Below are positions 13,701 through 30,171 of a stretch of DNA of 64,000 nucleotides, piece after piece; within the stretch, counting starts at the first letter, position 1, and the number at the start of each line of letters is the position of its first letter. Source of the stretch: Escherichia coli (GTDB lineage: Bacteria > Pseudomonadota > Gammaproteobacteria > Enterobacterales > Enterobacteriaceae); the NCBI RefSeq assembly GCF_013315695.1, contig NZ_CP054354.1; one strand, 5' to 3'. The notes under the pieces were generated by a model. The model ran no database searches and was not told the origin of the DNA. It saw nothing but the letters and a program-made list of their open reading frames with translations. The position numbers and the translations under genes are program-made.

Positions 13701-14040
13701 AGGATGTCGCCGCAGGCTCCGCTTTACCCGGCCATGCGGGGCATGGCCTTGTGGGTTTTCAGTTATGTGGCCTCAGCGCCGTGTGCGGGCTGTGCCGTGC
13801 CTCCATCGTAGCCGGGCTTCTGCGGGCGGGTTGCAAGGTAAGGTGAACCGCTGCGGTCACCCGGTCCCTCCTTCCCGTCTGCCGTGATTTTCCGGTCGTT
13901 CACCCGCTCAGATTTCGCGGTCTCACCCTTCAACTCCCGTCAGCCGTGCGCGTCAGGCTGCGGCTTCCCTTGCGCCCTTGCAACCCTGCAGGCCCGGCAA
14001 AGATGGAGGCACGGCACCGCCCGGTGTCGCGGAATATGTG
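13701..14040. repeat. GC-rich ~340-bp non-coding element, family A copy 1, immediately upstream of klcA
   Basis: Near-identical to 20650-20992; contains palindromes such as gccatgcggggcatggc; no supported ORF. Confidence 0.7.
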
Positions 14041-14059
14041 AACAACGGAGGAAAACATC

Positions 14060-14485
14060 ATGCAATATGCGAAACCTGTCACTCTGAACGTTGAAGAGTG
14101 CGACCGTCTGTCTTTTCTGCCTTACCTGTTTGGCCTGGATTTTCTGTATGCCGAAGCGTCTGTATACGCGCTGGCGAAAAAAATGATGCCGGAATATCAG
14201 GGAGGCTTCTGGCACTTCATCCGCCTGCCGGACGGTGGCGGTTACATGATGCCGGATGGCGACCGTTTCCACATGGTGAACGGTGCAAACTGGTTTGACC
14301 GTACCGTGAGTGCTGATGCCGCAGGCATCATCCTTACCTCCCTTGTGATTAACCGCCAGTTGTGGCTGTACCACGACAGCGGGGATGCAGGGTTGACACA
14401 CCTGTACAGGATGCGTGATGCGCAGTTGTGGAGCCACATCGAATTTCACCCCGAATGCAACGCGATTTACGCGGCACTTGACTGA
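14060..14485 (+). CDS. klcA: Antirestriction protein, KlcA/ArdB family
   Basis: 141 aa; FLPYLFG...[21 protein letters not shown]...SADAAGI matches the KlcA/ArdB pattern from memory; RBS aacggaggaaaa. Confidence 0.8.
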
Positions 14486-14531
14486 TTAACGGACGGGGCG
14501 GCAATGCCGCCCCTGTAAAGGAGACGAGAAC

Positions 14532-14954
14532 ATGTACTGTACTGTTAAAGAAATCATCCGCGATGTACTGGATACAGACGTGCCGGACAGTGAATGCGTT
14601 TTTGCCGTGGTGCTGACCCGTGGGGATGTGCGTCACATAGCCCAGGACTGGAACCTGTCAGACGATGAGCTGGAAACCGTCATGCAGCGACTGGACGATG
14701 CCTTTGAGCATGGTGCGGATGTCAGCGTTGTTCACGACGTTGTTCGTGAACTGATGGAAGAAAAGCGCGCCAGCCGTCATGTGACAGTCCCGGCGGTGAT
14801 GCTGGAAAAAGTGATGGCGCTGGCAGGCAGTGAAATGAAGCGCCTGTATGCCGTCGGGAGTGAGAACGGGGGCGACGGTGACGCATTCGTCAGGGAGGAA
14901 CGCGAAGCAATGGACGTTGTGTTACAGGCGCTGGACGGGGAGACGATGTCATGA
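14532..14954 (+). CDS. Hypothetical leading-region protein (140 aa); paralogue of 12395-12829
   Basis: RBS aaggagacgagaac-ATG nearly identical to that of 12395; acidic. Confidence 0.6.
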   Translation: MYCTVKEIIRDVLDTDVPDSECVFAVVLTRGDVRHIAQDWNLSDDELETVMQRLDDAFEHGADVSVVHDVVRELMEEKRASRHVTVPAVMLEKVMALAGSEMKRLYAVGSENGGDGDAFVREEREAMDVVLQALDGETMS

Positions 14955-15142
14955 ATATCAGCACAGAAACCCGCGAAATTCTGCGTAATTACAGGGCCGT
15001 GATTAATGCGCGGCGTCGTGAAATGGGGCAGAAACCGCTCACCACCGCGCAGATTGTTGATGAAATCTGCGATTTTGTGGCGAATCAGCAGGCGGTTTTC
15101 CTGGGCGGTCACTACATCCTTCAGGGCAGCAGAAACAGGTGA
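14951..15142 (+). CDS. Hypothetical small protein (63 aa)
   Basis: Start overlaps upstream stop (ATGTCATGA). Confidence 0.4.
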   Translation: MNISTETREILRNYRAVINARRREMGQKPLTTAQIVDEICDFVANQQAVFLGGHYILQGSRNR

Positions 15143-15342
15143 TACAGGGGCAGGCGGTGGAGGCCGCCTGTCAGCCCGCGCGAAAACCCCTGGCAGGCTG
15201 ACGCCTGCCGGAAACGCGGGGTGCAGCGCCTGCGGCGCTGCCGGCCCGGCTTTCCGGTCAGAAGGTAGTGTATGGCTGTATGCAGGGAACAGGAGTGATA
15301 TTCCGTGACACTGTCACCGTTTCTGGCTGTCTTTTATTGCGC

Positions 15343-15905
15343 CCACTTCGGCTCCCGGCTGCCTGGCGGCATCCGGTCGTCAGGCCCGACTCCGACGGGC
15401 AGCTGCTGGCGCACCCGCCAGTCTCCGCCGAACCCGCTGGCGCGGTTTCGGGCTGCCGCTACGGTCCGATGCGTGAAAACCCGGGCTTGCAGCGACCGTT
15501 CCGGTCGCGCCGCCCCTGTCGCGCCGTGACCTGCGCTCCCTGCACACCTGACGGTGTGTGAGGAAACTGCGCCTGATGGCGCAGCAGTCCTCCCTCCTGC
15601 CGCCCCCCCTGCGGCCTGTTTCCCCGCTGTGGACTTTCCGGGGGGCAGACGTAACCCCCTCCCGTTCCATCTGTCCAGGGTGAGATGCACCGGCCACAAA
15701 ATTTTTAGCCATGAACCCGGCAAAAAATTTTGCGTCCGCCCCCGGACAGCTGCCCCGTGAGGCGGTAAACGGGCCCCCATCGGAAAGGTCCACTGCGGGG
15801 AGAAACCCCTGTGAAGTGGACGGCAGGAGGAGCTTTCGCTCCTCTGAAGGGGCACATGAACGTCCCGTCGCCGGTATCCGGTTTATCTCACATCTTTCAG
15901 TCAGG
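15343..15905. repeat. GC-rich ~560-bp non-coding element, family B copy 1 (Frpo/ssi-like), upstream of ssb
   Basis: Repeated at 21690-22240 and partially at 25230-25600; hairpins such as ctgcgcc-tgat-ggcgcag; ORFs here lie on both strands without RBS. Confidence 0.65.
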
Positions 15906-15913
15906 AGGTTCTT

Positions 15914-16441
15914 ATGAGTGCACGTGGTATCAACAAGGTCATCCTCGTCGGGCGTCTGGGCAATGATCCGGAAGTCCGTTACATCCCCAACGGGGGCGCA
16001 GTGGCAAACCTGCAGGTGGCCACATCAGAAAGCTGGCGTGACAAACAGACGGGGGAGATGCGGGAGCAGACGGAATGGCACCGCGTGGTGCTGTTCGGCA
16101 AGCTCGCGGAAGTGGCAGGTGAATATCTGCGCAAGGGTGCGCAGGTCTACATCGAAGGTCAGCTTCGCACCCGTAGCTGGGAAGATAACGGTATCACCCG
16201 TTACGTCACTGAAATTCTTGTTAAGACCACGGGCACCGTGCAGATGCTGGGACGTGCACCACAGCAGAACGCTCAGGCGCAACCGAAGCCTCAGCAGAAT
16301 GGGCAGCCACAGAGTGCTGACGCGACGAAAAAAGGTGGCGCGAAAACGAAAGGCCGTGGACGTAAGGCCGCGCAGCCAGAGCCTCAGCCGCAACCGCCGG
16401 AGGGGGAGGATTACGGGTTTTCAGACGACATCCCGTTCTGA
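15914..16441 (+). CDS. ssb: Plasmid single-stranded DNA-binding protein
   Basis: 175 aa; OB-fold N-terminus ([18 protein letters not shown]), Gln/Pro-rich linker, acidic tail ending DDIPF; AGGAGG RBS. Confidence 0.95.
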
Positions 16442-16498
16442 TCGGGCTGACTGTGACAACCGCCCCGCCCTGTGCGGGGCATCACCGGAGATATGAGG

Positions 16499-16732
16499 AT
16501 GAGCGAATATTTCAGAATACTTCAGGGACTGCCGGACGGCTCCTTTACCCGCGAACAGGCGGAAGCCGTTGCCGCACAGCACCGGAACGTCTTTATCGAG
16601 GATGATCAGGGAACGCATTTTCGCCTGGTTGTCCGTCAGGATGGCACGTTGATCTGGCGCTCCTGGAATTTTGAGGACTGTGCCGGGTACTGGATGAACC
16701 AGTACATCAGGGATTTCGGGATTCTTAAGTAA
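16499..16732 (+). CDS. Hypothetical leading-region protein (77 aa)
   Basis: ATG at 16499 is 8 nt after GGAG (16487-16490); ORF track start 16472 is GTG without RBS. Confidence 0.5.
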
Positions 16733-16790
16733 GAGAGGTGCCGGACGCGCGAACGTCCGGCAGGACATAAGCAATTATAAGGGGATGATT

Positions 16791-18749
16791 ATGCCTGTAA
16801 CGAAGTGTGAACCAGAAACCACCCGCAAAGCAAGCCGTAAATCTGTAAAAACGCAGGAAACTGTCCTGTCTGCCCTGCTGGCGCAGACGGAGGAAGTGAG
16901 CGTGCCGCTGGCCTCGCTGATTAAATCACCGCTGAATGTGCGCACGGTGCCGTATTCTGCGGAGTCCGTCAGCGAACTGGCGGAGTCCATTAAGGGCGTC
17001 GGACTGCTGCAGAATCTGGTCGTGCATACCCTGCCTGGTGACCGTTACGCTGTCGCCGCAGGCGGTCGCCGACTGGCAGCACTCAACATGCTGGCAGAGC
17101 GCAACATCCTTCCGGCTGACTGGCCTGTACGCGTGAAGGTCATTCCGCAGGAGCTGGCGACTGCCGCATCGATGACCGAGAACGGTCAGCGTCGGGATAT
17201 GCACCCTGCCGAACAGATTGCCGGATTCCGCGCAATGGCGCAGGAAGGCAAAACACCTGCACAAATCGGTGATTTGCTGGGCTATTCACCCCGCCACGTT
17301 CAGCGAATGCTGAAACTGGCAGACCTTGCTCCGGTTATCCTCGATGCGCTGGCAGAAGACCGCATCACCACAGAGCACTGTCAGGCGCTGGCGCTGGAGA
17401 ACGACACCGCGCGTCAGGTGCAGGTGTTTGAAGCCGCCTGCCAGTCGGGATGGGGCGGTAAACCGGAAGTACAGACCATTCGTCGTCTGGTGACCGAAAG
17501 TGAAGTGGCGGTGGCGGGGAACAGTAAATTCCGCTTCGTGGGGGCTGATGCCTTCTCGCCAGACGAACTGCGCACCGATTTGTTCAGCGATGACGGGGAC
17601 GGTTATGTCGACCGCGTGGCGCTCGATGCCGCCCTGCTGGAAAAACTCCAGGCTGTCGCAGAGTTCCTTCGGGAAGCCGAAGGCTGGGAATGGTGCGCCG
17701 GACGCATGGAGCCTGTCGGTGAGTGCCGTGAAGATGCCCGGGCATACCGCAACCTGCCGGAGCCGGAAGCGGTGCTGACGGAGGCGGAAGACGAACGTCT
17801 GAACGAACTGATGGCTCGTTACGACTCGCTGGAAAACCAGTGTGAGGAATCTGACCTGCTGGCAGCAGAAATGAAGCTGATTGACTGCATGGCGAAGGTC
17901 AGGGCGTGGACGCCGGAGATGCGTGCCGGAAGTGGCGTGGTGGTGTCCTGGCGTTACGGTAATGTGTGTATCCAGCGTGGTGTGCAGTTGCGCAGTGAGG
18001 ATGATGTGGCTGACGACGCTGACCGCACGGAACAGGGGCTGGAGAGCGCGTCAGTGGAGGAAATTAGTCTGCCGTTGCTGACTAAATTGACCTCAGAGCG
18101 CACGCTGGCTGTCCAGGCAGCACTGATGCAGCAACCGGACAAATCCCTGGCACTGCTGGCATGGACGCTCTGCCTGAATGTGTTTGACAGCAAAGCGCAT
18201 AGTAGTCCCGCCAGAATTCGCCTGGAATGTGAGCATTATGCGCTGACCAGCGATGCACCGTCAGGGAAGGAAGGTGCCGCATTCATGGCGCTGATGGCAG
18301 AACACTCTCGTTTTGCTGCCCTGCTGCCGGAAGGATGGGAACGGGATATGACGACGTTCCTGTCACTTAGCCAGGAGGTGCTGTTATCCCTGCTCAGTTT
18401 CTGTACCGCGTGCAGTCTTAACGGTGTCCAGACCCGCGAGTGTGGTCACACGTCACGCAGTCCGCTGGACTCGCTGGAAACCGCCATCGGCTTTCACATG
18501 CGCGACTGGTGGCAGCCGACAAAAGCAAACTTCTTCGGACACCTGAAAAAGCCGCAGATTATCGCAGCCCTGAATGAGGCCGGACTGTCCGGTGCCGCAC
18601 GGGACGCGGAGAAAATGAAGAAAGGCGATGCGGCTGAACATGCAGAGTTCCATATGAAAGACAACCGCTGGGTGCCTGGCTGGATGTGTGCACCACGTCC
18701 ACAGACGGATGCCACTGAACACACCGCTAACCTGGCTGATGCCGCCTGA
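16791..18749 (+). CDS. ParB-like nuclease-domain protein of the leading region (~652 aa)
   Basis: N-terminal ParB/Srx-like segment (GLLQNLVVHTLPGDRYAVAAGGRRLAALNML); alternative ATG at 16785. Confidence 0.8.
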   Translation: MPVTKCEPETTRKASRKSVKTQETVLSALLAQTEEVSVPLASLIKSPLNVRTVPYSAESVSELAESIKGVGLLQNLVVHTLPGDRYAVAAGGRRLAALNMLAERNILPADWPVRVKVIPQELATAASMTENGQRRDMHPAEQIAGFRAMAQEGKTPAQIGDLLGYSPRHVQRMLKLADLAPVILDALAEDRITTEHCQALALENDTARQVQVFEAACQSGWGGKPEVQTIRRLVTESEVAVAGNSKFRFVGADAFSPDELRTDLFSDDGDGYVDRVALDAALLEKLQAVAEFLREAEGWEWCAGRMEPVGECREDARAYRNLPEPEAVLTEAEDERLNELMARYDSLENQCEESDLLAAEMKLIDCMAKVRAWTPEMRAGSGVVVSWRYGNVCIQRGVQLRSEDDVADDADRTEQGLESASVEEISLPLLTKLTSERTLAVQAALMQQPDKSLALLAWTLCLNVFDSKAHSSPARIRLECEHYALTSDAPSGKEGAAFMALMAEHSRFAALLPEGWERDMTTFLSLSQEVLLSLLSFCTACSLNGVQTRECGHTSRSPLDSLETAIGFHMRDWWQPTKANFFGHLKKPQIIAALNEAGLSGAARDAEKMKKGDAAEHAEFHMKDNRWVPGWMCAPRPQTDATEHTANLADAA

Positions 18750-18803
18750 TGAACAACCACACCGCCCCGCCGGAGACGGGGCGGCAGCAAGGGAGATACC
18801 GTG

Positions 18804-19238
18804 ATGAAAACTGAACTGACCCTGAATGCCCTGCAGTCCATGAACGCACAGGAATATGAAGATATCCGTGCTGCGGGAAGCGATATGCGCCGTAATCTCA
18901 CTCACGAGGTGATGCGTGAAGTGGACGCACCGGCTAACTGGGTGATGAACGGAGAGTATGGCAGTGAGTTCGGGGGCTTTTTCCCCGTCCAGGTTCGTTT
19001 CACGCCAGCCCACGAACGTTTCCACCTGGCATTATGTTCGCCGGGAGACGTCTCTCAGCTCTGGATGCTGGTTCTGGTGAATGGTGGTGGACAGCCTTTC
19101 GCCGTCGTTCAGGTGCAACATATCTTCACGCCTGTCGCGATCAGTCACACGCTGGCGCTTGCCGCGACACTGGATGCGCAGGGATACAGTGTTAACGACA
19201 TCATCCATATCCTGATGGCAGAAGGAGGTCAGGCATGA
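18804..19238 (+). CDS. psiB: Plasmid SOS inhibition protein PsiB
   Basis: [27 protein letters not shown]...[34 protein letters not shown] matches F PsiB as recalled; GGGAG RBS 8 nt upstream; GTG at 18801 used by the ORF track. Confidence 0.95.
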
Positions 19239-19954
19239 GCGCACGTTCACGGGCACTGATCCCCCTCAGCGCAGAACAACAGGCCGCCATGCAGGCGGTG
19301 GCTGTCACAGAACAACGTCGTCGTCAGGGACGCACACTTTCAGCATGGCCTTATGCCACCGCTTTCTTTCGCTGCCTGAATGGCAGTCGCCGGATTTCGC
19401 TGACCGATCTCCGCTTTTTTGCCCCTGCGCTGACGAAGGAGGAATTTCATGGCAACCGTCTCCTGTGGCTGGCTGCCGTGGATAAACTGATTGAAAGTTT
19501 TGGGGAAGTCTGTGTTCTTCCCCTGCCATCCGATGCGGGGCACCGTCTGTTCCCGTCCGTGCCTTTTCGTGAAGGTGAGCGTCGTCGTCAGAAAACCACG
19601 CTGACAGAGCAGAAATACAGCCGCCAGCGGGAACGTGAGGCAGAACGACGGGAACTGGAATACCAGACATGTTTTGCTCAGGCGCAGATTGACCTTGCGT
19701 TTCATACTCCCGCCACGGTCGGAAGCTGGTTGTCCCGCTGGTCTGGTGTTGTTGAGGAGCATGATCTGGAAACGATTTTCTGGGGGTGGTGCGGGCGTTT
19801 TCCATCACTGTCATCATTTGACCGGTTTTTCTGGCAGGAGGAACCACTCTGGCGGCTGATTTTTGAAGCCGGTGAGGCCGGTCGTGGTGCACCGGTACAG
19901 GTACGTGCACTTGAGCAGTGGATGATCCCGAACAAGCTGGAGAACGTAATATGA
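19235..19954 (+). CDS. psiA: PsiA
   Basis: 239 aa directly downstream of and overlapping psiB (ATGA), the conserved psiB-psiA arrangement. Confidence 0.85.
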
Positions 19955-20547
19955 TGAAATCAGACGAAAAATACCAGGTTCCCGCGTGGATGCGACCTCT
20001 GTTGCCGTTGCTCTGCAACACCGGGGGGAACGATCCGGAAGAACTGCTGAATGATACAGAAACCACTGCCAGTGCGAATGTTGTCCGTTATGTACTGATA
20101 GTTGCTGTGCGGTCGCAGGTTGATCTGCTGCAGCTTCTGTACAGGAAAGGGCTGTTGCGCACAGAGATACCAGGTGGCTTTTCACCGGAAGAAGCGCAGG
20201 CACTCCTGGATAATCTGGTGCGCAGCCATATCAGCAAGGCGCTGTCGGGCGAGCGAATGGCAGCCCGTGACAGAAATGCCGATCTGGCCTGGATTGGACA
20301 GCAACTGGTCGATGCCGCCTGGTTTGTCCGTGCCACACTGGAAGCGCATGGGATGAGCGTCGGAAATGAGAGTCCCCCTGCTCCGCCGGAGACAATGCCG
20401 GACATACAGACACGGGAACTGGTGATGTTGATCAAGCGACTGGCATCATCGCTGAAAGCGGTGAAACCGGACAGTTGTGTGGTGCGTGAAGCGCAGGACT
20501 GGCTGCGCGACAGAAAACTTGTGGATATCACAGATATTCTCCGGTGA
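19951..20547 (+). CDS. Hypothetical leading-region protein (198 aa)
   Basis: ATG overlaps psiA stop (ATATGA); ORF track start 19918 lies inside psiA. Confidence 0.55.
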   Translation: MMKSDEKYQVPAWMRPLLPLLCNTGGNDPEELLNDTETTASANVVRYVLIVAVRSQVDLLQLLYRKGLLRTEIPGGFSPEEAQALLDNLVRSHISKALSGERMAARDRNADLAWIGQQLVDAAWFVRATLEAHGMSVGNESPPAPPETMPDIQTRELVMLIKRLASSLKAVKPDSCVVREAQDWLRDRKLVDITDILR

Positions 20548-20649
20548 ACCAGGCATGTATATTTTACGCAGGGACATGCCGGTCATGATCGTTTCGTTCC
20601 AGGGGTGGTCTGGAGATCATGCGGTGTGCTCCCTGCTCTCGCCGGAATA

Positions 20650-20992
20650 AGGACGTCGCCGCCGGCTCCGCTTTTACCCGGCCATGCGGGGCATGGCCTT
20701 GTGGGTTTTCAGTTATGTGGCCGCCGTGTCGTGTGCGGGCTGTGCCGTGCCTCCATCGTAGCCGGGCTTCTGCGGGCGGGATGCAAGGTAAGATGAACCG
20801 CTGCGGTCACCCGGTCCCTCCTTCCCGTCTGCCGTGATTTTCCGGTCGTTCACCCGCTCAGATTTCGCGGTCTCACCCTCCAACTCCCGCCAGCCGTGTG
20901 CGTCAGGCTGCGGCTTCCCTTGCGCCCTTGCATCCCTGCAGGCCCGGCAAAGATGGAGGCACGGCACCGCCCGGTGTCGCAGAACATGTGAC
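20650..20992. repeat. GC-rich ~340-bp non-coding element, family A copy 2, immediately upstream of ardA
   Basis: Near-identical to 13701-14040 over ~330 bp. Confidence 0.7.
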
Positions 20993-21008
20993 TATGGAGG
21001 ATTCGGGA

Positions 21009-21509
21009 ATGTCTGTTGTTGCACCTGCTGTATACGTTGGAACCTGGCACAAATACAACTGTGGAAGCATCGCTGGCCGCTGGTTTGACCTGACAACGTT
21101 TGATGATGAACGCGACTTTTTCGCCGCCTGCCGTGCCCTTCACCAGGATGAAACCGACCCGGAACTGATGTTTCAGGATTATGAGGGATTCCCGGGGAAT
21201 ATGGCCTCTGAATGCCATATCAACTGGGCCTGGGTTGAAGGCTTCCGCCAGGCGCGGGATGAAGGCTGCGAAGAGGCTTATCGTCTCTGGGTGGATGATA
21301 CCGGTGAGACGGATTTTGACAGCTTCCGCGATGCCTGGTGGGGCGAGGCTGACAGTGAGGAGGCTTTTGCGGTTGAGTTCGTCAGTGATACCGGCCTGCT
21401 GGCTGACGTGCCGGAGACGGTGGCGCTCTATTTTGACTATGAGGCGTATGCGCGGGATTTATTCCTGGACTCCTTCACCTTTATTGACGGTCATGTGTTC
21501 CGTCGGTGA
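21009..21509 (+). CDS. ardA: Antirestriction protein ArdA
   Basis: 166 aa from ATG at 21009 (GGAGG RBS 20996-21000); MSVVAPAVYVGTWHKYNCGSIAGRWFDLTTFDDE and very acidic C-terminal half typical of ArdA DNA mimics. Confidence 0.85.
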   Translation: MSVVAPAVYVGTWHKYNCGSIAGRWFDLTTFDDERDFFAACRALHQDETDPELMFQDYEGFPGNMASECHINWAWVEGFRQARDEGCEEAYRLWVDDTGETDFDSFRDAWWGEADSEEAFAVEFVSDTGLLADVPETVALYFDYEAYARDLFLDSFTFIDGHVFRR

Positions 21510-21689
21510 TTTACTCCCCGCTCCGGCGGGGGGATGGCCTGCCAGGCCCCCGGAAAACCCTGGCAGGCTTACGCCTGCCTGAAATACAGGAGGGCCGCGC
21601 CTGCGGCGCTACCCTTCCTGCCTGTCATAGTGTGAGGCATTTTTCTGTTTTGTCGTTTCTGTTGTTCTGACTCCCGGGGGCGGGGACAC

Positions 21690-22240
21690 CCTTCGGCTCC
21701 CGGCTGCCTGGCGGCATCCGGTCGTCAGGCCCGACTCCGACAGGCAGCTGCTGGCGCACCCGCCAGTCTCCGCCGAACCCGCTGGCGCGGTTTCGGGCTG
21801 CCGCTACGGTCCGATGTCTGAAAAACCAGGCTTGCAGCGACCGTTCCGGTCGCGCCGCCTCTGTCGCGCCGTGACCTGCGCTCCCTGCACACCTGACGGT
21901 GTGTAAGGAAACTGCGCCTGATGGCGCAGTTGTCTGCCCTTCCGCCGCCCCCCCTGCGGCCTGTTTCCCCGCTGTGGACTTTCCGGGGGCTGAAGCGGCC
22001 ACAACACGTTTCAGCCGTCCAGGGGAGAGATGTACCAGCCACAAAACTTTTTGCCGCAAGCGTCAAAAACTTTTGCGTCTGCCCCCGGACAACTGCCCCG
22101 TGCCGTGGCAGTCGCTGCCCCATCGGAAAGGTCCACTGCGGGGAGAAACCCCGAAGAAGTGGACGGCAGAAGGGGCTTTCGCCCCTCCGGGGGAGCAACC
22201 GGTCGGCCCGGCGACCTGATTCAGCAGAAGGAGACGTTTT
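21690..22240. repeat. GC-rich non-coding element, family B copy 2 (Frpo/ssi-like)
   Basis: Aligns with 15343-15905 along most of its length; ends at the RBS of the 22242 gene. Confidence 0.65.
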
Positions 22241-22241
22241 C

Positions 22242-22676
22242 ATGACAGTCAGCAGCACGATTTCCGTTTTTTGCCGCGACGGGGTGTTCCGTACCGTTTA
22301 CTGCCACCTGCACGGTGAGCCGACCTGGAACGGTCGCATCCTGCATACCCACTATGCCACCGGTCAGCAGGCCGAAGCCCTGGTTGAACACGGTGATATC
22401 CGTTGCCTCGGTCCCCGTTGCGACAAACCCGCCGGGCATACGCTTCAGAACCCGGTGGACGGTGTGACGGCTTATTACGGACGTGACAGTGGTTTCCGGA
22501 TGGACAGTGAGGCGCGTGAGTACCGTTCTTTCAGGGAGGCCATCGCCACGGAAAGCACTGAAGAGGTGCGCTTCCATTATGTGTTCATCGACGGCTACTG
22601 GAAGGTGATGTACCGCACGCCGGAAGGCTGGAAGATGAAAGCGCTCGCGCTGGCACTGCGTCGCTGTCCGGAATGA
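22242..22676 (+). CDS. Hypothetical leading-region protein (144 aa)
   Basis: AAGGAG RBS then ATG at 22242; followed by hairpin terminator gcagggcgataaaccctgc (22682-22700). Confidence 0.55.
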   Translation: MTVSSTISVFCRDGVFRTVYCHLHGEPTWNGRILHTHYATGQQAEALVEHGDIRCLGPRCDKPAGHTLQNPVDGVTAYYGRDSGFRMDSEAREYRSFREAIATESTEEVRFHYVFIDGYWKVMYRTPEGWKMKALALALRRCPE

Positions 22677-22768
22677 AAAAAAGCAGGGCGATAAACCCTG
22701 CCTTTCTCCGCTGGCGCTTCCCCGTACGGAAGTCCGGCATCTCATTCACTAACTATGGAGATTATGCC

Positions 22769-23035
22769 ATGAGACCATCAATTATCTTCGCAACCGCCGA
22801 GTATGTAAAGCGTCTGCGAGAAGAGTGCCTGCGGGAGAACAAACCCCTGCACCGCCATACCCGCTTCAGACGCCAGGAACTGGCACCGGATGAGATTAAC
22901 CCGGACGTCCTGGCGATGGGCGGTCATATCGCCAGACGCTGCAGTGAGCAGAAGCGGGTACGTATCCCCGCCATGAAAGTCAGCGAATGGGGCCACCTGC
23001 TCCGCGCGCTTGAAATTGAACGGGTCTGTCACTGA
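22769..23035 (+). CDS. Hypothetical basic protein (88 aa)
   Basis: ATG at 22769 after ctatggagattatgcc; Arg/His-rich. Confidence 0.45.
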   Translation: MRPSIIFATAEYVKRLREECLRENKPLHRHTRFRRQELAPDEINPDVLAMGGHIARRCSEQKRVRIPAMKVSEWGHLLRALEIERVCH

Positions 23036-23211
23036 TTAACCCCTGCCGTCTGCCTGTGCAGGTGGCAGGATGTGTTCAGGTACTTTACCAGGAGGAACCG
23101 TGAGCAAGATGAAAAACATCACGACGTCTGTGTTGCATGGTGTCTCCACAAAAAACAGAAAAGGGAAACAGATTCTCTTTCATTCAGGGCCCGGGAGGGC
23201 TGGAGATAACA

Positions 23212-23601
23212 ATGAAGTCTTGTTTTGATACTGACAAAGCTTTTCATATGTCTTTTGATGAAGTCACTTTCAACGCTGACAGAATTCGCTCAAAACTGGA
23301 ACTATTATCCGAAGAACTAATGCCCCGTTGTGGTCTTGTTTATGAGCTATATCAGCGACGTTTGAGTGCTGCTATTGATAATTTTGTGGCCACATTGCCG
23401 ACAGAACAACATCTACTGGTCCTGGAACTGGCCCGTGAGGAGTTTGATTACCTTTCCGCAGAAGAGATTGCTGAAGAAATACGCCGTGACTCAGAACGCG
23501 GCTATTGTTGTCATGGCTTTGAACGCAATTGCTGTCCTCTCGGTTGTGGGGATTTGGGCGATGATTGCTGCGATGCTGCTGATTTGATGGAGGAACCGTG
23601 A
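23212..23601 (+). CDS. Hypothetical acidic protein with Cys-rich C-terminus (129 aa)
   Basis: GGAG RBS 23202-23205; C-terminal CCHGFERNCCPLGCGDLGDDCCD. Confidence 0.5.
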   Translation: MKSCFDTDKAFHMSFDEVTFNADRIRSKLELLSEELMPRCGLVYELYQRRLSAAIDNFVATLPTEQHLLVLELAREEFDYLSAEEIAEEIRRDSERGYCCHGFERNCCPLGCGDLGDDCCDAADLMEEP

Positions 23602-24512
23602 GTAAGAAGAAAAACACCACAACGCCCACGCCGCATGATGCCGCGTTCCGGTCGTTCCTGGCGAATCCCGACGTCGCCAGAGATTTTCTGGAACTGCATC
23701 TTCCTGCGGAGTACCGGCAGTTGTGCGACCTGTCCACGCTGAAGCTGGAACCCGCCACCTTTGTAGAGCCGGACCTGCATCAGTACGCCAGCGATATCCT
23801 CTGGAGCGTGAAAACCACCGGGGGTGAAGACGGCTATGTTTATACGCTCATCGAGCACCAGAGCACAGAAAATCTGTACATGCCTTTTCGCATGTTACGC
23901 TACAGTGTGGCGGCGATGCAGAGACATCTGGAGCAGCACAAAACGTTGCCACTGGTGATTCCGGTGCTGTTCTATCACGGTGAGCGCAGCCCGTACCCGT
24001 ACAGCATGAACTGGCTGGACTGTTTTGAGAATCCGGCACTTGCGGCTAAAATATACACAAAACCGTTTCCGCTGGTTGATATCACTGTCGTTGATGACAA
24101 TGAAATCATGAATCATCGCCGGATGGCCGCACTGACGCTGCTGATGAAGCATATCCGCCATCGTGACATGATGGAGCTGCTGGACAAACTCCCGCAGGTC
24201 ATGGTGGAAATTTCAGACGAGCAGGTGCGTGTTCTGATTCATTACATCGTTAACGCAGGGGACTCTGTATCACCGGAATTTATGCGGGCGCTGGCTGAGC
24301 GTCTGCCGCAGCATGAGGATAAACTGATGACTATCGCAGAACGTCTTGAGCAAAAAGGTCGCCAGGAAGGCAGGATGGAAGGACGCATGGAAGGAGCGCT
24401 TGAAAAAGCCCTGGCTATTGCGTGCCAGCTTCAGAAAATGGGGATGACGCCGGAGCAGATTAAGCAGGCTACCGGACTTTCCGATGACGAACTGAAGAAA
24501 ATCACTCACTGA
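23598..24512 (+). CDS. Rpn (YhgA-like) recombination-promoting nuclease, PD-(D/E)xK family
   Basis: 304 aa, GTG start after GGAGG; N-terminal PHDAAFRSFLANPDVARDFLELHLP and C-terminal QEGRMEGRMEG...MGMTPEQIKQATGLSDDELKK are characteristic of Rpn proteins as recalled. Confidence 0.8.
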   Translation: MSKKKNTTTPTPHDAAFRSFLANPDVARDFLELHLPAEYRQLCDLSTLKLEPATFVEPDLHQYASDILWSVKTTGGEDGYVYTLIEHQSTENLYMPFRMLRYSVAAMQRHLEQHKTLPLVIPVLFYHGERSPYPYSMNWLDCFENPALAAKIYTKPFPLVDITVVDDNEIMNHRRMAALTLLMKHIRHRDMMELLDKLPQVMVEISDEQVRVLIHYIVNAGDSVSPEFMRALAERLPQHEDKLMTIAERLEQKGRQEGRMEGRMEGALEKALAIACQLQKMGMTPEQIKQATGLSDDELKKITH

Positions 24513-24519
24513 TGAGAAC

Positions 24520-24552
24520 CGCAAAGCCCGGCAAAATCCCGGGCTTTTTTGC
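24520..24552 (+). terminator. Rho-independent terminator after rpn
   Basis: aaagcccggcaaaatcccgggctttttt: GC stem plus T-run. Confidence 0.6.
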
Positions 24553-24574
24553 CTGCAGGAGCAGAGCAAACAGC

Positions 24575-24745
24575 ATGACGATTGCAGAACGTCTTATACA
24601 GAAAGGTTTTGAAAAAGGTGCTCTTGAAGTGGCGCGGGAAATAGCCTGCCGGCTGCGGGATATGGGCTGGACGCCGGAACGGATTCAGGAGGCGACCGGA
24701 CTTTCCGGTGAAGAACTGAAAAAGCTGTTTCCTGATGAGCAGTAG
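24575..24745 (+). CDS. Free-standing Rpn C-terminal-domain paralogue (RpnS-like small protein, 56 aa)
   Basis: MTIAERLIQKGFEKGALEVAREIACRLRDMGWTPERIQEATGLSGEELKK parallels the rpn C-terminus MTIAERLEQKG...; begins after the rpn terminator; weak RBS. Confidence 0.45.
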   Translation: MTIAERLIQKGFEKGALEVAREIACRLRDMGWTPERIQEATGLSGEELKKLFPDEQ

Positions 24746-24775
24746 CCTGGCATTCTGCCAGGCTGTGAATCACGC

Positions 24776-25027
24776 TCACACATCCTCTGCCGTTTCCCCC
24801 AGTTCATTTTCCAGTCGCCTGATGATATCTGCCTTACGCATCCCCTGCATGTGAGGCAGCAGGTCACGGACTGAAAGTGCCTGGGTGGTCCTCCAGACGG
24901 TGACATCCACCTGCTCCGCATTTTCCCAGGCGTGCCATGTTCTCTGTGTCACGCCAAATTCTCTGGCCGCTTTTTCGCGTGACCAGAGCATGCTTTTTCG
25001 CCAGATTCGCAGTTCCCAGCCGGTCAT
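24776..25027 (-). CDS. Small Xre-like helix-turn-helix regulator (83 aa)
   Basis: REKAAREFGVTQRTWHAWE resembles an Xre-type HTH; divergent from the leading-region genes; operator-like repeats upstream. Confidence 0.5.
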   Translation of the reverse strand: MTGWELRIWRKSMLWSREKAAREFGVTQRTWHAWENAEQVDVTVWRTTQALSVRDLLPHMQGMRKADIIRRLENELGETAEDV

Positions 25028-25039
25028 AAAATACCTTTT

Positions 25040-25140
25040 AAAAAGTGAAAAAACTTCACTTTATTTTATCACCATAATCACCAAATCAGCGCGAAAAATA
25101 AATGTGAAAAAGTGAAGAAATTTCACTTTTTTTAGTTGTA
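25040..25140. promoter_or_regulatory. Inverted-repeat operator candidates (GTGAA-N-TTCAC) upstream of the Xre-like gene
   Basis: aaagtgaaaaaacttcacttt and gtgaaaaagtgaagaaatttcac in an AT-rich stretch. Confidence 0.4.
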
Positions 25141-25229
25141 GATGTCGTGCTGTTTTCTCTGTTTTCACCTGTGCGGGAGTGGGTGTCAGTGACCACCACA
25201 TGCCATTGTTGTGCCGTCGTTTTTCTTCA

Positions 25230-25600
25230 GTCGCGCCGGATGCAGCGCTCCCTGCACACCTTACGGTGTGTAAGGCCACTGCGCCTGATGGCGCAGCTGT
25301 CTCTGCCTGTCTGCCGCCGCACTGCGGCCTGTTCTCCGCAGACGGACTTTCCGGGGAACATACACGACCACATCCCGTTTCAGTTATCCAGGGGAGAGAT
25401 GTACCAGCCACAAAACTTTTTGCCGCAGGCGTCAAAAACTTTTGCGTCTGCCCCCGGACAACTGCCCCGTGACGTGGTGAGCATCCCCCGTCGGAAAGGT
25501 CCACTGCGGGGAAATCCCCGAAGACCCGGACGGCAGAAGGAGCTTCGCTCCTCCGGGAAATGACCTGGCTGACCCGGCAGTCGTGACGATGAGGAGACAA
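25230..25600. repeat. GC-rich non-coding element, family B copy 3 (partial, 3' ~370 bp)
   Basis: Aligns with the 3' part of 15343-15905 and 21690-22240; ends at the RBS of the 25605 gene. Confidence 0.6.
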
Positions 25601-25604
25601 TGTG

Positions 25605-26453
25605 ATGAATCAGACTTTACCCACTGCTGACCTGAATACTGCCGGCACGACAGATGTTATTCCGTCTGTAGCTATCGACCGCATCATCGCGCAGCGTAAC
25701 GAAGGTATTGCACTGTTCATGCAGGCGATGGAATGCCTGGCGACAGCGCGCAAGATTCTGCTCGATGCGTCAGGTGATATTTTTCTTTACGGGTTTGAAG
25801 ACTGCGTGACTGATTCCGTTCGTCGCATGGATAAGACGGAAGAAGCGAAAAGGAATATCACCCGTCTTGCCGACCGGAAAATCTGGGACCGCCTGATGAC
25901 AGATACGGGCATGTACACCTTCATGAGTTCATGCCAGCGTGATGAGTGGAACAGCCAGCTGATGAGCGACACCTGTCCTGAAATCACCCTGGACAATGTA
26001 CTGGCAACATTCCGCCATCTTAATGCCAGCAAGATGCAGACGTTTGAACAGGGGCTGATTGATGTCTACCGGAAATTGTCATGGGATTACAGAACCAATA
26101 ATCCCTGCCGTCTGGGTAAGAAAATCATTATTGAAAACCTACTGTACCGCTGGAGTAACGGGCGTGTGACGCTGGACTGCAGCGGACGGGAGGCACTGGA
26201 TGACCTGGTACGTCCGTTTTATCTGCTGGAGGGGCGCAACGTTCCTGACTTCAGGAACAGCATCGGGGCGCAGTATGGTGAATTTCTCGGGAACGGTGAC
26301 AATGTCGGTAAGCTGTTAGAAGGGGAATATTTTACGGTGCGTGGCTACCAGAAAGGGACCGTACACATTGTCTTTAAGCGTTCTGACCTTGTTGAAAAAC
26401 TGAATGATATTATTGCACGGCATTATCCTGGTGCATTGCCGCCACGAGTCTGA
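25605..26453 (+). CDS. Hypothetical leading-region protein (283 aa)
   Basis: GAGGAG RBS 25591-25596 then ATG at 25605; terminator-like hairpin at 26464-26496. Confidence 0.6.
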   Translation: MNQTLPTADLNTAGTTDVIPSVAIDRIIAQRNEGIALFMQAMECLATARKILLDASGDIFLYGFEDCVTDSVRRMDKTEEAKRNITRLADRKIWDRLMTDTGMYTFMSSCQRDEWNSQLMSDTCPEITLDNVLATFRHLNASKMQTFEQGLIDVYRKLSWDYRTNNPCRLGKKIIIENLLYRWSNGRVTLDCSGREALDDLVRPFYLLEGRNVPDFRNSIGAQYGEFLGNGDNVGKLLEGEYFTVRGYQKGTVHIVFKRSDLVEKLNDIIARHYPGALPPRV

Positions 26454-26538
26454 TTAAACAGAAAAGCCCAGGTATTTATGCCGGGGCTTTTTTTTCTGTA
26501 ATCATCATAATCTCAGAACACAATGTGACATTGTCACA

Positions 26539-26880
26539 TCAATTGTTGTTCATATCGATGCCATCTTTCCTGCCTGAATCTGTCTTTTTAGGTGCTGTTT
26601 TAGAGGAAGAACGGCGGGATGGTTTTTTCGATTCTGCTTCCCGAATAATGTCACGAAGTGCTTTCTCTCCTACTTCATATCCTGCATTTTTGAGCGTGTC
26701 ACGAACATCTGTCAGTGTATAACCCTTTGTCCTTACCAGGATAATGATGTCATCACGAATGGCATCAAGAAAATCACGCAATGTTTTCCGTTGAGCGGTG
26801 AGGTCTGGCAATTCCGATAAAGCAGCTTTTGCCAGCTGGATGTCATCATCTGAGTAAAATTTTTTAGACGCCATTGGCAC
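26539..26880 (-). CDS. Hypothetical Lys/Ser-rich protein adjacent to oriT (113 aa)
   Basis: GGAGAG RBS before GTG at 26880 (alternative ATG at 26874); basic C-terminal tail. Confidence 0.5.
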   Translation of the reverse strand: MPMASKKFYSDDDIQLAKAALSELPDLTAQRKTLRDFLDAIRDDIIILVRTKGYTLTDVRDTLKNAGYEVGEKALRDIIREAESKKPSRRSSSKTAPKKTDSGRKDGIDMNNN

Positions 26881-26989
26881 TTTCTCTCCGTTTAATGTTG
26901 AAGCCTGATTTTATCATCAAAAACTGCCTCCTGGCAGGGCTGCGCCCTGCCTCTGCCGTCTGCATAAGACTATGATGCACAAAAATAAC

Positions 26990-27065
26990 AGGCTATAATG
27001 GACTGAAAAACGGGACAGGATGTGTAATCGTATAACCGCGCACGCACGGCTATACGATTACCACC
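26990..27065 (-). other. oriT core: MOBP-type nic site ATCCTG|T on the minus strand (nick between 27016 and 27015) plus 11-bp inverted repeat
   Basis: Minus strand reads cacATCCTG|TCCCGTTTTTC; inverted repeat GTAATCGTATA...TATACGATTAC at 27024-27061, 7-8 nt from the nick; sits just upstream of nikA-nikB. Confidence 0.75.
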
Positions 27066-27106
27066 TGGTCAGGGCTTAGCCCCGACACCCCGGTAAGGAG
27101 CAGACC

Positions 27107-27439
27107 ATGAGTGAGAAGAAAACCCGAAGTGGCAGTGAGAAACGGCAAAAGAATGTCCTCATTGCTGTTCGTTTTTCACCAGAAGAGGCTGAGATTGTTA
27201 AAGAAAAGGCAGAAAAAAACGGACTGACAGTTTCAACTCTGATAAGAAAAACTGTGCTGGGAAAACAGATAAATGCCCGCATTGACGAAGATTTTTTGAA
27301 AGAGCTGATGCGTCTTGGTCGCCTGCAGAAGCATCTGTTTGTGGAAGGAAAACGCACGGGAGATAAAGAGTATGCAGAGGTTCTCGTTGCTATTACAGAG
27401 CTTGCTAATACTCTGCGAAGAAATTTAATGGGACGCTGA
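27107..27439 (+). CDS. nikA: Relaxosome accessory protein NikA (ribbon-helix-helix)
   Basis: 110 aa; VRFSPEEAEIVKEKAEKNGLTVSTLIRK...LMRLGRLQKHLFVEGKR matches R64 NikA as recalled; AAGGAG RBS. Confidence 0.9.
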   Translation: MSEKKTRSGSEKRQKNVLIAVRFSPEEAEIVKEKAEKNGLTVSTLIRKTVLGKQINARIDEDFLKELMRLGRLQKHLFVEGKRTGDKEYAEVLVAITELANTLRRNLMGR

Positions 27440-27450
27440 GATAATCGCTG

Positions 27451-30171
27451 ATGAATGCCATCATTCCGAAAAAAAGACGTGACGGAAAGTCTTCTTTTGA
27501 AGACCTGATTGCGTACACCTCAGTGCGGGATGATGTGCCGGAAGATGAACTCAGGCCTGACACGGAAATGAAAGCTGAGATTCCGCACCGGAACCGCTTC
27601 AGACGTCTTGTTGATTATGCAACACGTCTGCGTAATGAAAAATTTGTTTCCCTGATTGATGTGATGAAAGACGGCAGTCAGTGGGTGAATTTCTATGGTG
27701 TGACCTGCTTTCATAACTGTTTGTCTCTTGAATCTGCGGCTGAAGAAATGCAGAAAGCAGCAGAGCTTGCTCATTTTTCCAAAGATGATACAGACCCTGT
27801 TTTTCACTATATTCTCTCCTGGCCTGCGCACGAAAGTCCGCGTTCTGAGCAGCTTTTTGACTGTGTGCGTCACACCCTGAAATCCCTTGAGCTGTCAAAA
27901 CATCAGTATGTGGCAGCCGTTCATACAGACACGGATAACCTGCATGTACATGTTGCAGTGAATCGTGTCCACCCTGAAACCGGCTATATCAATTGCCTTC
28001 CGTGGAGCCAGGAAAAACTCAGTCGTGCATGCCGTGAACTTGAACTTAAGCACGGATTCGCGCCGGATAATGGTTGCTTTGTACATGCACCGGGCAATCG
28101 TATTGTGCGCAAAACAGCGCTGGTACGTGAGCGCCGTAATGCCTGGCGACGCGGGAAAAAGCAGACGTTCAGGGAATATATTGATCAGATGTCGATTGCC
28201 GGGCTGCGTGAAGAGCCAGCACAGGACTGGTTATCTTTGCATAAACGGCTGGCCAGTGATGGTCTGTATATCACGATGCAGGAAGGGGAACTGGTGGTGA
28301 AGGATGGCTGGGACAAAGCGCGGGAAGGTATTGCACTCAGTTCGTTCGGACCGTCATGGACAGCTGAAAAACTGGGGCGGAAACTGGGGGAATATCAGCC
28401 TGTACCGACAGATATTTTCAGTCAGGTGGGGACACCCGGTCGTTATGATCCGGAAGCCATAAACGTTGATATCCGGCCGGAAAAAGTGGCAGAAACGGAG
28501 AGTCTGAAACAGTACGCCTGCCGTCATTTTGCCGAACGCTTACTGGCAATGGCGCGCAATGGTGAACTGAAAAGCTGCCTGGCTGTACACCGTACTCTGG
28601 CAGAGGCGGGATTATGGATGGGGATTCAACACGGGCATCTGGTACTGCATGATGGATTTGATAAACAACAGACACCAGTACGTGCAGACAGTGTGTGGCC
28701 GTTAATGACGCTGGATTACATGCAGGATCTGGATGGTGGATGGCAGCCTGTACCGAAGGATATTTTTACTCAGGTCGTTCCCGGAGAACGATTCCGGGGA
28801 CACAGTATTGGCTCTCAGCCTGTCAGTGATTACGAATGGTATCGCATGAGGATGGGCACAGGTCCGCAGGGGGCTATAAAGCGTGAACTGTTTTCTGATA
28901 AGGAAAGTCTGTGGGGATACGGCCTTATTCAGTGCAGGAGCCTGATTGAAGAGATGATAGCTGACGGGGATTTCAGCTGGCAGGCATGTCATGAGATGTT
29001 TGCACGTAAAGGGCTTATGCTGCAGAAACAGCATCATGGTCTTGTGATTGTGGATGCGTTTAATCATGAGCTGACACCGGTGAAGGCCAGCAGTATCCAT
29101 CCTGATTTGACGTTATCCCGTGCCGAGCCTCAGGCCGGGCCATTTGAAATTGCGGCTGCAGATATTTTCGAACGGGTGAAGCCTGAATGTCGTTACAATC
29201 CGGAACTTGCTGCCAGTGATGAAGTGGAACCCGGCTTCCGGCGCGATCCTGAGATTCGTCGTGAGCGCCGTGAAGCCCGTGCAGCTGCGCGGGAAGATTT
29301 GCGTGCGCGTTATCTTGCATGGAAGGAGCACTGGCGTAAACCCGACTTACGTTACGGAGAACGGTTACGGGAAATTCATGCTGCCTGCCGTCGGCGCAAG
29401 GCGTATATCCGTGTGCAGTTCCGGGATCCACAATTGCGTAAGCTGCATTACCATATTGCGGAAGTGCAGCGTATGCAGGCGCTGATCAGGCTGAAGGAGA
29501 GTGTGAAGGAAGAGCGGTTGTCACTGATTGCGGAGGGTAAGTGGTATCCTTTGTCCTACCGGCAGTGGGTGGAACAACAGGCGGCTCAGGGAGACAGGGC
29601 TGCAGTATCGCAGTTACGTGGCTGGGATTATCGTGATCGTCGCTCGCGTAATAAGGATAAAAGACGCACAACTAATGTTGATCGTTGTGTCGTACTCTGC
29701 GAACCCGGAGGAACGCCACTTTTTAATAATGTTGCAAAACTTGAAGCTCGTCTTCAGAAAAATGGAAGTGTTCATTTCAGGGATACGCGGACAGGAAAAA
29801 ATGTCTGTACGGATTACGGAGATCGGGTTGTTTTCTACCATCACACGGACCGAAATGAACTGGCAGAGAAGCTTGATTTAATTGCGCCAGTTCTGTTCAG
29901 CCGCAACGGAAAGCTTGGTTTTGAGCCGGAAGGTTCATACCAGCAGTTTAATGATGTGTTTGCAGAAATGGTGGCCTGGCACAATGCAGCGGGAATAACC
30001 GGAAACGGACACTTCACCATTACTCGTCCGGACGTGGATTTGCACCGTCAACGCAGTGAGCAGTATTACCGGGAATATATCAGACAGCAGACCCGTTTAT
30101 CGGAGAGCCATGATGATAATTATACGTTACGGCAGGAGAAAACATGGGAGCCACCATCACCTGGAATGTAA
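27451..30171 (+). CDS. nikB: Relaxase NikB (MOBP family)
   Basis: 906 aa; relaxase histidine motif HVHVAVNRVHP; directly downstream of nikA. Confidence 0.95.
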   Translation: MNAIIPKKRRDGKSSFEDLIAYTSVRDDVPEDELRPDTEMKAEIPHRNRFRRLVDYATRLRNEKFVSLIDVMKDGSQWVNFYGVTCFHNCLSLESAAEEMQKAAELAHFSKDDTDPVFHYILSWPAHESPRSEQLFDCVRHTLKSLELSKHQYVAAVHTDTDNLHVHVAVNRVHPETGYINCLPWSQEKLSRACRELELKHGFAPDNGCFVHAPGNRIVRKTALVRERRNAWRRGKKQTFREYIDQMSIAGLREEPAQDWLSLHKRLASDGLYITMQEGELVVKDGWDKAREGIALSSFGPSWTAEKLGRKLGEYQPVPTDIFSQVGTPGRYDPEAINVDIRPEKVAETESLKQYACRHFAERLLAMARNGELKSCLAVHRTLAEAGLWMGIQHGHLVLHDGFDKQQTPVRADSVWPLMTLDYMQDLDGGWQPVPKDIFTQVVPGERFRGHSIGSQPVSDYEWYRMRMGTGPQGAIKRELFSDKESLWGYGLIQCRSLIEEMIADGDFSWQACHEMFARKGLMLQKQHHGLVIVDAFNHELTPVKASSIHPDLTLSRAEPQAGPFEIAAADIFERVKPECRYNPELAASDEVEPGFRRDPEIRRERREARAAAREDLRARYLAWKEHWRKPDLRYGERLREIHAACRRRKAYIRVQFRDPQLRKLHYHIAEVQRMQALIRLKESVKEERLSLIAEGKWYPLSYRQWVEQQAAQGDRAAVSQLRGWDYRDRRSRNKDKRRTTNVDRCVVLCEPGGTPLFNNVAKLEARLQKNGSVHFRDTRTGKNVCTDYGDRVVFYHHTDRNELAEKLDLIAPVLFSRNGKLGFEPEGSYQQFNDVFAEMVAWHNAAGITGNGHFTITRPDVDLHRQRSEQYYREYIRQQTRLSESHDDNYTLRQEKTWEPPSPGM

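Follow-up and report, generated by a model that had tools for sequence, protein, structure and literature searches.

The leading-region gene ygeA of IncI-complex plasmids: a putative autoregulated Xre-type repressor with two operators at its own promoter

The leading region of an IncI-complex conjugative plasmid carries, on its minus strand, the small gene ygeA, upstream of which lie two palindromes with identical arms, designated here operators O1 and O2. According to our analysis, ygeA is probably a self-contained and dispensable autoregulatory module that encodes a small dimeric repressor of the Xre type and is not the controller of rpn. The regulator comes from an unstudied family but is of an ordinary kind, and most likely it does no more than repress itself. 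The DNA analyzed, hereafter the window, is a 64-kb stretch of this plasmid. From 24500 to 25650 it is 100% identical to plasmid R16 (IncI-gamma/K1, MOBP, MPF-I; 107 kb), and the same segment is found in about 2000 PLSDB plasmids, across which ygeA is annotated as "helix-turn-helix transcriptional regulator." Leading regions have been studied as antidefense islands expressed from single-stranded DNA (ssDNA), and their later silencing is poorly understood. In about 2000 sequenced resistance plasmids of the IncI complex, ygeA represents the one conserved leading-region element with the opposite strand logic.

The ygeA gene and its protein family

The ygeA open reading frame (ORF; 24776-25027, minus strand) starts with ATG and encodes 83 residues, and a Shine-Dalgarno sequence, AAGG, read from the sequence 6 nt 5′ of the ATG (25034-25037, minus strand), is kept in an IncI variant of the locus. 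The gene is called YgeA in R64 and Hp21 or O3K_25942 in pESBL, and its phage family is phrog_6962; the "ygeA" of the F plasmid is a different gene that shares the name by coincidence. Comparison with the IncI variant (84% protein identity) gives a dN/dS ratio of 0.075 (dS, 1.3; dN, 0.097), and ygeA is a real gene under strong purifying selection. It is monocistronic, its transcription unit containing no other ORF, with the operators directly upstream and a convergent ORF directly downstream. An inverted-repeat search found a GC-rich hairpin of 9 bp (24744-24764) separating ygeA from the convergent Hp20 ORF; the hairpin has no T-run on either strand and was not called by a terminator scan. In the transposon sequencing of pESBL, Hp21 scored 1.00 as nonessential and 0.00 as required for transfer (PMC4288162, Table 2), and a TraDIS study of the I-complex did not flag ygeA (PMC10286972). 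The pESBL transposon data indicate that the IncI gene is dispensable and self-contained, and its practical importance is therefore modest. Public assemblies contain many truncated or frameshifted forms of the protein, such as a 62-residue form with 102 member sequences, and some plasmids (H18, H26, and H111) have no annotated coding sequence (CDS) at the ygeA site. These observations are consistent with the occasional loss of a dispensable gene, and contig ends may explain part of them.

The initial annotation described the product as an Xre-like regulator, an assignment that is borne out by the domain matches of the family, by the predicted fold, and by profile matches to solved structures. 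In Pfam, the ygeA protein itself stays below the cutoffs of HTH_31 (23.5 bits versus 27) and HTH_3 (16.8 bits versus 23), yet within an alignment of 28 family members, HTH_31 matches 26 (best E value, 1.7e-7) and HTH_3 matches 25 (best E value, 8.8e-9) at E < 0.01. An exhaustive HMMER search returned 79 cluster representatives at E ≤ 1e-3, and PHROGs places ygeA in phrog_6962 by full-length homology (E value, 1.8e-13). The NCBIfam search gave only subthreshold matches for ygeA, to VC1465, MqsA, and HipB (E values of 0.04 to 0.1, far short of the cutoffs, for the latter two), and no PADLOC model matched the helix-turn-helix (HTH) protein, Rpn, the DUF4942 protein, or the RpnS-like ORF discussed below. 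Based on the 28-member alignment, AlphaFold2 predicted a bundle of five helices (residues 3 to 12, 17 to 24, 28 to 35, 42 to 60, and 65 to 76) with a pLDDT of 90.5, in which helix 2, the turn, and helix 3 would form the DNA-reading unit. When this model was submitted to Foldseek, the first hit was Aca2 of phage ZF40 (probability, 0.98; TM-score normalized to Aca2, 0.44), and nearly all of the best 50 or so hits were HTH proteins of the Xre type, with E values above 0.1 given the short query. Searching the PDB sequences with the family profile likewise ranked Aca2 best (7ezy, E value of 1.8e-6; 8w35 and 7vjo, about 1.5e-4; 7b5j, 2e-3), followed by HipB, MqsA, and other Xre proteins.

Members of the family occur as a solitary gene on plasmids, phage-plasmids, and phages. 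A solitary member is found at 4001-4219 of L021 and on related viral contigs of about 60 kb (L027 and L032 to L038), where, as judged by eye, it adjoins genes resembling terminase subunits. The members on L020 and L021 have an upstream palindrome of their own, AAGGCGCA-N5-TGCGCTTT. Four large proteins of 450 to 1050 residues (P0118, P0120, P0148, and P0150) contain four to seven tandem stretches that match the small HTH protein, an arrangement that is unusual for an Xre-type domain.

Operators and promoter of ygeA

Two inverted repeats in an AT-rich region had been noted upstream of the gene, and both features hold up. The proximal operator O1 (AAAGTGAA-AAAAC-TTCACTTT, 25042-25062) has its arms at 25042-25049 and 25055-25062 around a 5-nt spacer, and the distal operator O2 (AAAGTGAA-GAAAT-TTCACTTT, 25109-25129) has the same arms. 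Both are 21-bp palindromes of the form AAAGTGAA-N5-TTCACTTT, 67 bp apart from start to start. In O2, the perfect arms extend to 25107-25116 and 25122-25131 (AAAAAGTGAA and TTCACTTTTT), and an inverted-repeat search found an extra GTGAAA half-site that abuts it (25103-25108, plus strand). The GTGA and TCAC cores are spaced 11 bp apart, or one helical turn, which is the geometry that would be expected for a symmetric HTH dimer. The surrounding 113 bp (25028-25140) are 75% A+T, versus 46% for the window, and of 20,000 first-order Markov simulations that kept this local composition, one produced a pair of separate perfect inverted repeats sharing the same 8-bp arms. The pattern AAGTGAA-N5-TTCACTT has exactly two exact matches in the window; with up to two mismatches allowed, the expected number of matches is 0.27, and three were not reached in any of 100 shuffles. 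O1 and O2 are far beyond chance. No further operator was found elsewhere in the window or in the remaining 43 kb of R16, and a single site with two mismatches (AAGGGAAACAGATTCTCTT, 23161-23179), inside the 23137 ORF, is most likely due to chance.

The same arrangement recurs in relatives. The IncI variant (L002 to L004; 84% protein identity) has kept O1, O2, and the sequence TGATA[A/G]AAT, in contrast to the 46 bp that separate the operators and the sequence past O2, most of which differs. Homologues at 33 to 57% identity share the layout, with palindromes 30 to 60 bp before the ATG and the proximal one abutting a −10 hexamer similar to TAAAAT. On other MOBP plasmids, the loci of homologues at 46 to 57% identity (L005, L006, L007, L010, L011, and L163) carry one to three AAGTGCA-N5-TGCACTT palindromes in the same place (two or three in five of the six), and the proximal palindrome begins 1 or 2 bases after the TAAAAT-like hexamer. 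Every relative examined has a palindrome equivalent to O1 at this place. Among distant members, the consensus AAAGTG-N9-CACTTT is either kept or altered in parallel with the residues of helix 3 and those preceding it. Proteins with TQRT or TLRT go with half-sites GTGAA or GTGTA, and those with SLRT or CLRT go with GTGCA; SLAT members have GTGTCA (AAAGTGTCA-N3), SRRT members have GGCGCA (AAGGCGCA-N5), and Orf20 of pOXA-48, with SRTS, has TGTTCA (AATGTTCA-N4).

This co-variation also bears on whether the palindromes might serve a host factor of the CRP type, which recognizes GTGA...TCAC, and not the plasmid protein. The consensus of CRP is AAATGTGA-N6-TCACATTT, and the window sequence AAAAGTGA-N7-TCACTTTT resembles it. 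However, the half-sites here are separated by 7 nt rather than 6, and GTGAA gives way to GTGCA, GTGTCA, GGCGCA, or TGTTCA in step with the HTH protein, always directly upstream of the HTH gene. On the basis of the spacing and the co-variation, we rejected the CRP reading, which we consider scarcely credible, in favor of operators that belong to ygeA.

A lax sigma-70 scan predicted an extended −10 element, TGATAAAAT (25063-25071, minus strand), with a poor −35 element. Its TAAAAT hexamer is at 25068-25063 and its TG at 25071-25070, 41 nt before the ATG in both the window and the variant locus L002. A stricter scan called no promoter on either strand because the −35 element is weak; this weakness is seen everywhere among the relatives, in which a −10-like hexamer again abuts the proximal operator. 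Transcription is predicted to start at about 25056, roughly 7 nt downstream of the −10 element and inside O1. The literature was also searched for mapped transcription starts of pCol1B9 in Salmonella SL1344, and none of the papers listed looked like a probable source. Since O1 abuts the conserved extended −10 element and covers the predicted start, autorepression is the best-supported mechanism, and O1, as read from the sequence, appears to be a cognate palindromic operator overlapping the core promoter of its own gene. Taken together, the conserved footprint, the co-varying sites of the homologues, and the position of O1 after a conserved −10 element support the reading that the palindromes behave as the operators of ygeA itself, as the initial annotation had proposed.

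In the model that we favor, YgeA would act as a small dimeric HTH repressor of the Xre type that recognizes AAAGTG-N9-CACTTT, and once bound to O1 it would block RNA polymerase and thereby repress its own synthesis. O2, 67 bp upstream, most likely seats a second dimer that would tighten or buffer this repression. The center of O2 is at about −63 from the predicted start, and the distance between distal and proximal operators ranges from 54 to 68 bp among the relatives, which corresponds to neither helical phasing nor a fixed activator position. In addition, the laxer scan revealed no conserved divergent sigma-70 promoter overlapping O2. Given the unfixed distance and the lack of a divergent promoter, we take O2 to be accessory to the autorepression exerted at O1, an assignment less secure than any other element of the model.

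Strand logic in the leading region and possible targets

The positions of nikA (27107) and nikB (27451) place oriT near 26.9 to 27.1 kb. The genes on the left side of oriT, namely, ssb, psiB, psiA, ardA, rpn, and the DUF4942 gene, are all on the plus strand and point at oriT, as is usual for leading regions. Since the T-strand is the template for leading-region genes (PMC11541004; PMC12672017), the transferred strand is here the minus strand. The sense strand of ygeA is this transferred strand, so that, unlike its neighbors with ssDNA promoters, ygeA could not use the incoming single strand as a template. With a template strand made only in the recipient, it would be excluded from the early single-strand burst that has been documented for the leading genes of pESBL (PMC12672017), and we expect it to be turned on only after the incoming DNA has become double stranded. 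Following synthesis of the complementary strand, ygeA would then be expressed with a brief overshoot in the repressor-free cell before settling at a low, autoregulated level.

The antisense orientation of ygeA within the leading region is found in seven of seven MOBP lineages examined, namely, the window, the IncI variant, and five more, including lineages from Enterobacter, Salmonella, and Edwardsiella. In all seven, the gene lies 2 to 3 kb from oriT, flanked by the leading operon that enters first and by the block after it. More distant members (Orf20 of pOXA-48, some phage-plasmids, and phages) have another orientation or another location, so the strand logic is a property of the ygeA clade and not of the whole family. 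An earlier description of ygeA as the sole leading-region gene on the minus strand was nearly accurate: within the roughly 14 kb left of oriT that were inspected in the R16 annotation, the one other minus-strand CDS is yggA (26539-26880), beside oriT. The RefSeq label of the latter, [quoted passage not shown] looks misannotated; the gene matches the pESBL "Protein YggA" by position alone. YggA of R64 has been reported as a homologue of pCTX-M3 Orf35, a repressor of nikAB-tra. Orf35 and Orf36 of pCTX-M3 are not homologues of ygeA, Orf35 corresponding to YggA.

Two targets had been suggested for the regulator, rpn and the DUF4942 gene. Control of rpn was not supported, as no operator besides O1 and O2 occurs close to rpn or elsewhere on the plasmid and relatives of ygeA occur without rpn alongside. 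It is likewise very improbable that YgeA is the regulator or antitoxin of an rpn nuclease module consisting of Rpn and an extra ORF for the Rpn C terminus. While ygeA is convergent with and adjoins rpn and the RpnS-like ORF, and many proteins of the Xre type are antitoxins, ygeA is not cotranscribed with rpn, which lies inside a plus-strand block with ORFs from about 22673 ahead of it and no operator nearby. Moreover, the neighbors in relatives are an N6 methylase, a group II intron, or hypothetical genes, and pESBL tolerates insertions in Hp21. The ORF directly 3′ of rpn (24512-24745, plus strand) is free-standing, encodes 77 residues, and is a second copy of the C-terminal 60 or so residues of Rpn (58% identity; E value, 1e-17). 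Its versions at the variant loci give a weak HTH_Rpn_C signal, and it could represent an additional antitoxin module of the RpnS type.

The DUF4942 gene (25602-26453, plus strand; RefSeq start, 25605) is a leading gene whose product is methyltransferase-like (Pfam DUF4942, E value of 5e-51; phrog_6263, DNA methyltransferase). Its control by YgeA is unproven: the gene is preceded by an element of the ssi/Frpo type, and there is no divergent promoter at O2. This element, a class 1 single-strand promoter leading into the DUF4942 gene (25230-25557, plus strand), separates the gene from O2 and has two further copies in the window (21860-22191 and 15518-15844), the three being 80 to 84% identical. 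In IncI1 plasmids, ssi1 to ssi3 are class 1 ssDNA promoters (PMC12672017). Among relatives, the divergent neighbor of ygeA varies. In every case, the promoter of the gene adjoins a long leader, and the T-strand of this leader is much more strongly folded than shuffled sequences, as assessed by z-score in three cases: the T-strand of 25135-25600 folds at −109 kcal/mol (z, −6.06), and the leaders of two relatives, which have no sequence homology to the IncI ssi, give z-scores of −5.67 and −6.25. An Rfam search of 14000-28000 returned nothing.

Since ygeA is strongly conserved and pure self-regulation has no obvious selective value, an unseen target is likely, whether in the host, in a coresident element, or in the adjacent operon with the ssDNA promoter. 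The last option would mean that YgeA keeps the first-entering leading operon (ssi3 and DUF4942) silent in the duplex plasmid. This could occur by two routes: the repressor bound to O1 and O2, together with convergent transcription of ygeA, could form a roadblock or insulator against read-through from ardA-rpn, or the repressor could shut off a weak promoter that works on duplex DNA within the AT-rich region. We view this option as rather unlikely. It draws on the conserved position of the gene, which in seven of seven lineages separates the first-entering operon from the block that follows and has its operators beside a strongly folding T-strand leader, including leaders without homology to the IncI ssi; on the harm done by forced read-through into I-complex leading genes (PMC10286972); and on the existence of repressors of leading or establishment genes, such as ArdK with the CUP elements (PMC6289460) and Reg576 (PMC6294495). 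Yet no conserved divergent promoter lies over the distal operator, such operators are missing from the two remaining ssi copies of the window, insertions in pESBL Hp21 have no maintenance or transfer phenotype, and adjacency to an ssi follows trivially for an antisense gene placed between two operons.

Alternatively, YgeA could act in trans beyond the plasmid, on host genes (a defense-system promoter, for example) or on coresident or incoming mobile elements bearing the same operator, with O1 and O2 serving autoregulation only. Strong conservation with no other target on the plasmid would fit such a role, as would the solitary nature of the gene across plasmids, phage-plasmids, and phages and the fact that its closest solved relatives are Aca2 regulators of antidefense operons. 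We nonetheless find it improbable: no host site was identified, the matches listed by a scan of 100,044 genomes for the exact operator being from unrelated taxa and uninformative, and an antidefense role would favor early expression, for which ygeA is on the wrong strand. Autorepression through O1, with O2 as an auxiliary site, remains our preferred account of the operators.

Comparison with known regulators

The closest solved relatives of YgeA are the Aca2 proteins (ZF40 Aca2, PDB 7VJP and 7VJQ; 7EZY). YgeA and Aca2 have in common an N-terminal "MT.(Y/W)EL...R" motif, and residues R30, W35, and E36 of Aca2 correspond to R29, W34, and E35 of YgeA, of which R29 is present in nearly all family members, W34 occurs as W or Y, and E35 is found in all. 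The ZF40 Aca2 promoter also contains two inverted repeats. YgeA has 83 residues versus about 120 for Aca2, the alignment covers residues 1 to 54 of Aca2 (the family profile matching the N-terminal 52 residues), and YgeA has no counterpart of the C-terminal dimerization part. None of the 28 family members matched DUF1870, which we take to be the Aca2 family in Pfam, at E ≤ 0.01, and ygeA has no acr gene upstream such as would place it in an anti-CRISPR operon. Control through an RNA hairpin in the 5′ untranslated region, in the manner of Aca2, was rejected, as with the predicted start inside O1 the mRNA would lack the hairpin. Similarity confined to the HTH, the short length, and the lack of both DUF1870 and acr argue for an Aca2-like mode of action without membership in the Aca2 family. 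Functionally, YgeA corresponds to a classical autoregulated repressor of the Xre type whose HTH is structurally closest to that of Aca2. Aca2 is a dimeric autorepressor that acts on inverted repeats with the half-site GTTC in its own promoter, and Aca1 has two inverted repeats per promoter (PMC8633003).

YgeA also resembles Xre/Cro repressors, HTH antitoxins (HipB, MqsA, and HigA), and the controller C proteins of restriction-modification systems in its five-helix HTH and in the multiple palindromic operators over its own promoter. It differs from them in having no toxin or restriction-modification partner (no toxin gene is adjacent to and cotranscribed with ygeA, as would be expected for a type II antitoxin) and in sites that are 67 bp apart and do not form an adjacent C-box pair. 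ArdK of IncN plasmids, with its CUP elements (PMC6289460), and Reg576 of Bacillus p576 (PMC6294495) are autoregulated repressors of establishment regions, for which the absence of repressor in a new host gives rise to a transient burst of expression. Their folds, TrfB/KorA for ArdK and ribbon-helix-helix for Reg576, differ from that of YgeA, and they have several operators before antirestriction or establishment genes, whereas those of ygeA are at its own promoter only.

Within the family, the pOXA-48 protein Orf20 (DNDJGHEP_0014, WP_004187394) is 33% identical to the ygeA protein over 76 residues in a full-length, gap-free alignment (E value, 6e-16). Orf20 has the same size as YgeA, and the promoter region of its operon likewise contains a perfect palindrome. 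In contrast to ygeA, orf20 is co-oriented with its neighbors, being the second gene of an operon in which a putative endonuclease follows, and the half-site and spacer differ from those of the ygeA operator. The perfect palindrome, AAAATGTTCA-AATA-TGAACATTTT, lies upstream of orf19 (8452-8475 of L008; about 21842 in the pOXA-48 record), and a copy with three mismatches (5603-5622 of L162; about 37202) immediately precedes a strong promoter, TTGATA-17-TATAAT, located ahead of the ssb block. We regard the palindrome upstream of orf19, AAAATGTTCAAATATGAACATTTT, and the 37202 site as candidate Orf20 operators on the basis of their sequences. While pESBL Hp21 is dispensable (PMC4288162), Orf20 is essential for plasmid maintenance (PMC12365149; PMC12361523), which indicates that this HTH family can control something important. 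It is conceivable, if doubtful, that in MOBP/MPF-I leading regions the family marks a conserved "late" stage, its coding strand being chosen so that the gene stays silent in the single-strand burst and fires once the DNA is duplex. The protein would then bind next to the first-entering operon with its ssDNA promoter and, as an insulator or shutoff switch, hold the leading region in its silent vegetative state, and Orf20 would be the same device in control of a toxic cargo. YgeA belongs to the same uncharacterized family as Orf20, the essential role of which was left unexplained by two studies in 2025, and the operator consensus AAAGTG-N9-CACTTT, with its lineage variants, makes both proteins directly testable.
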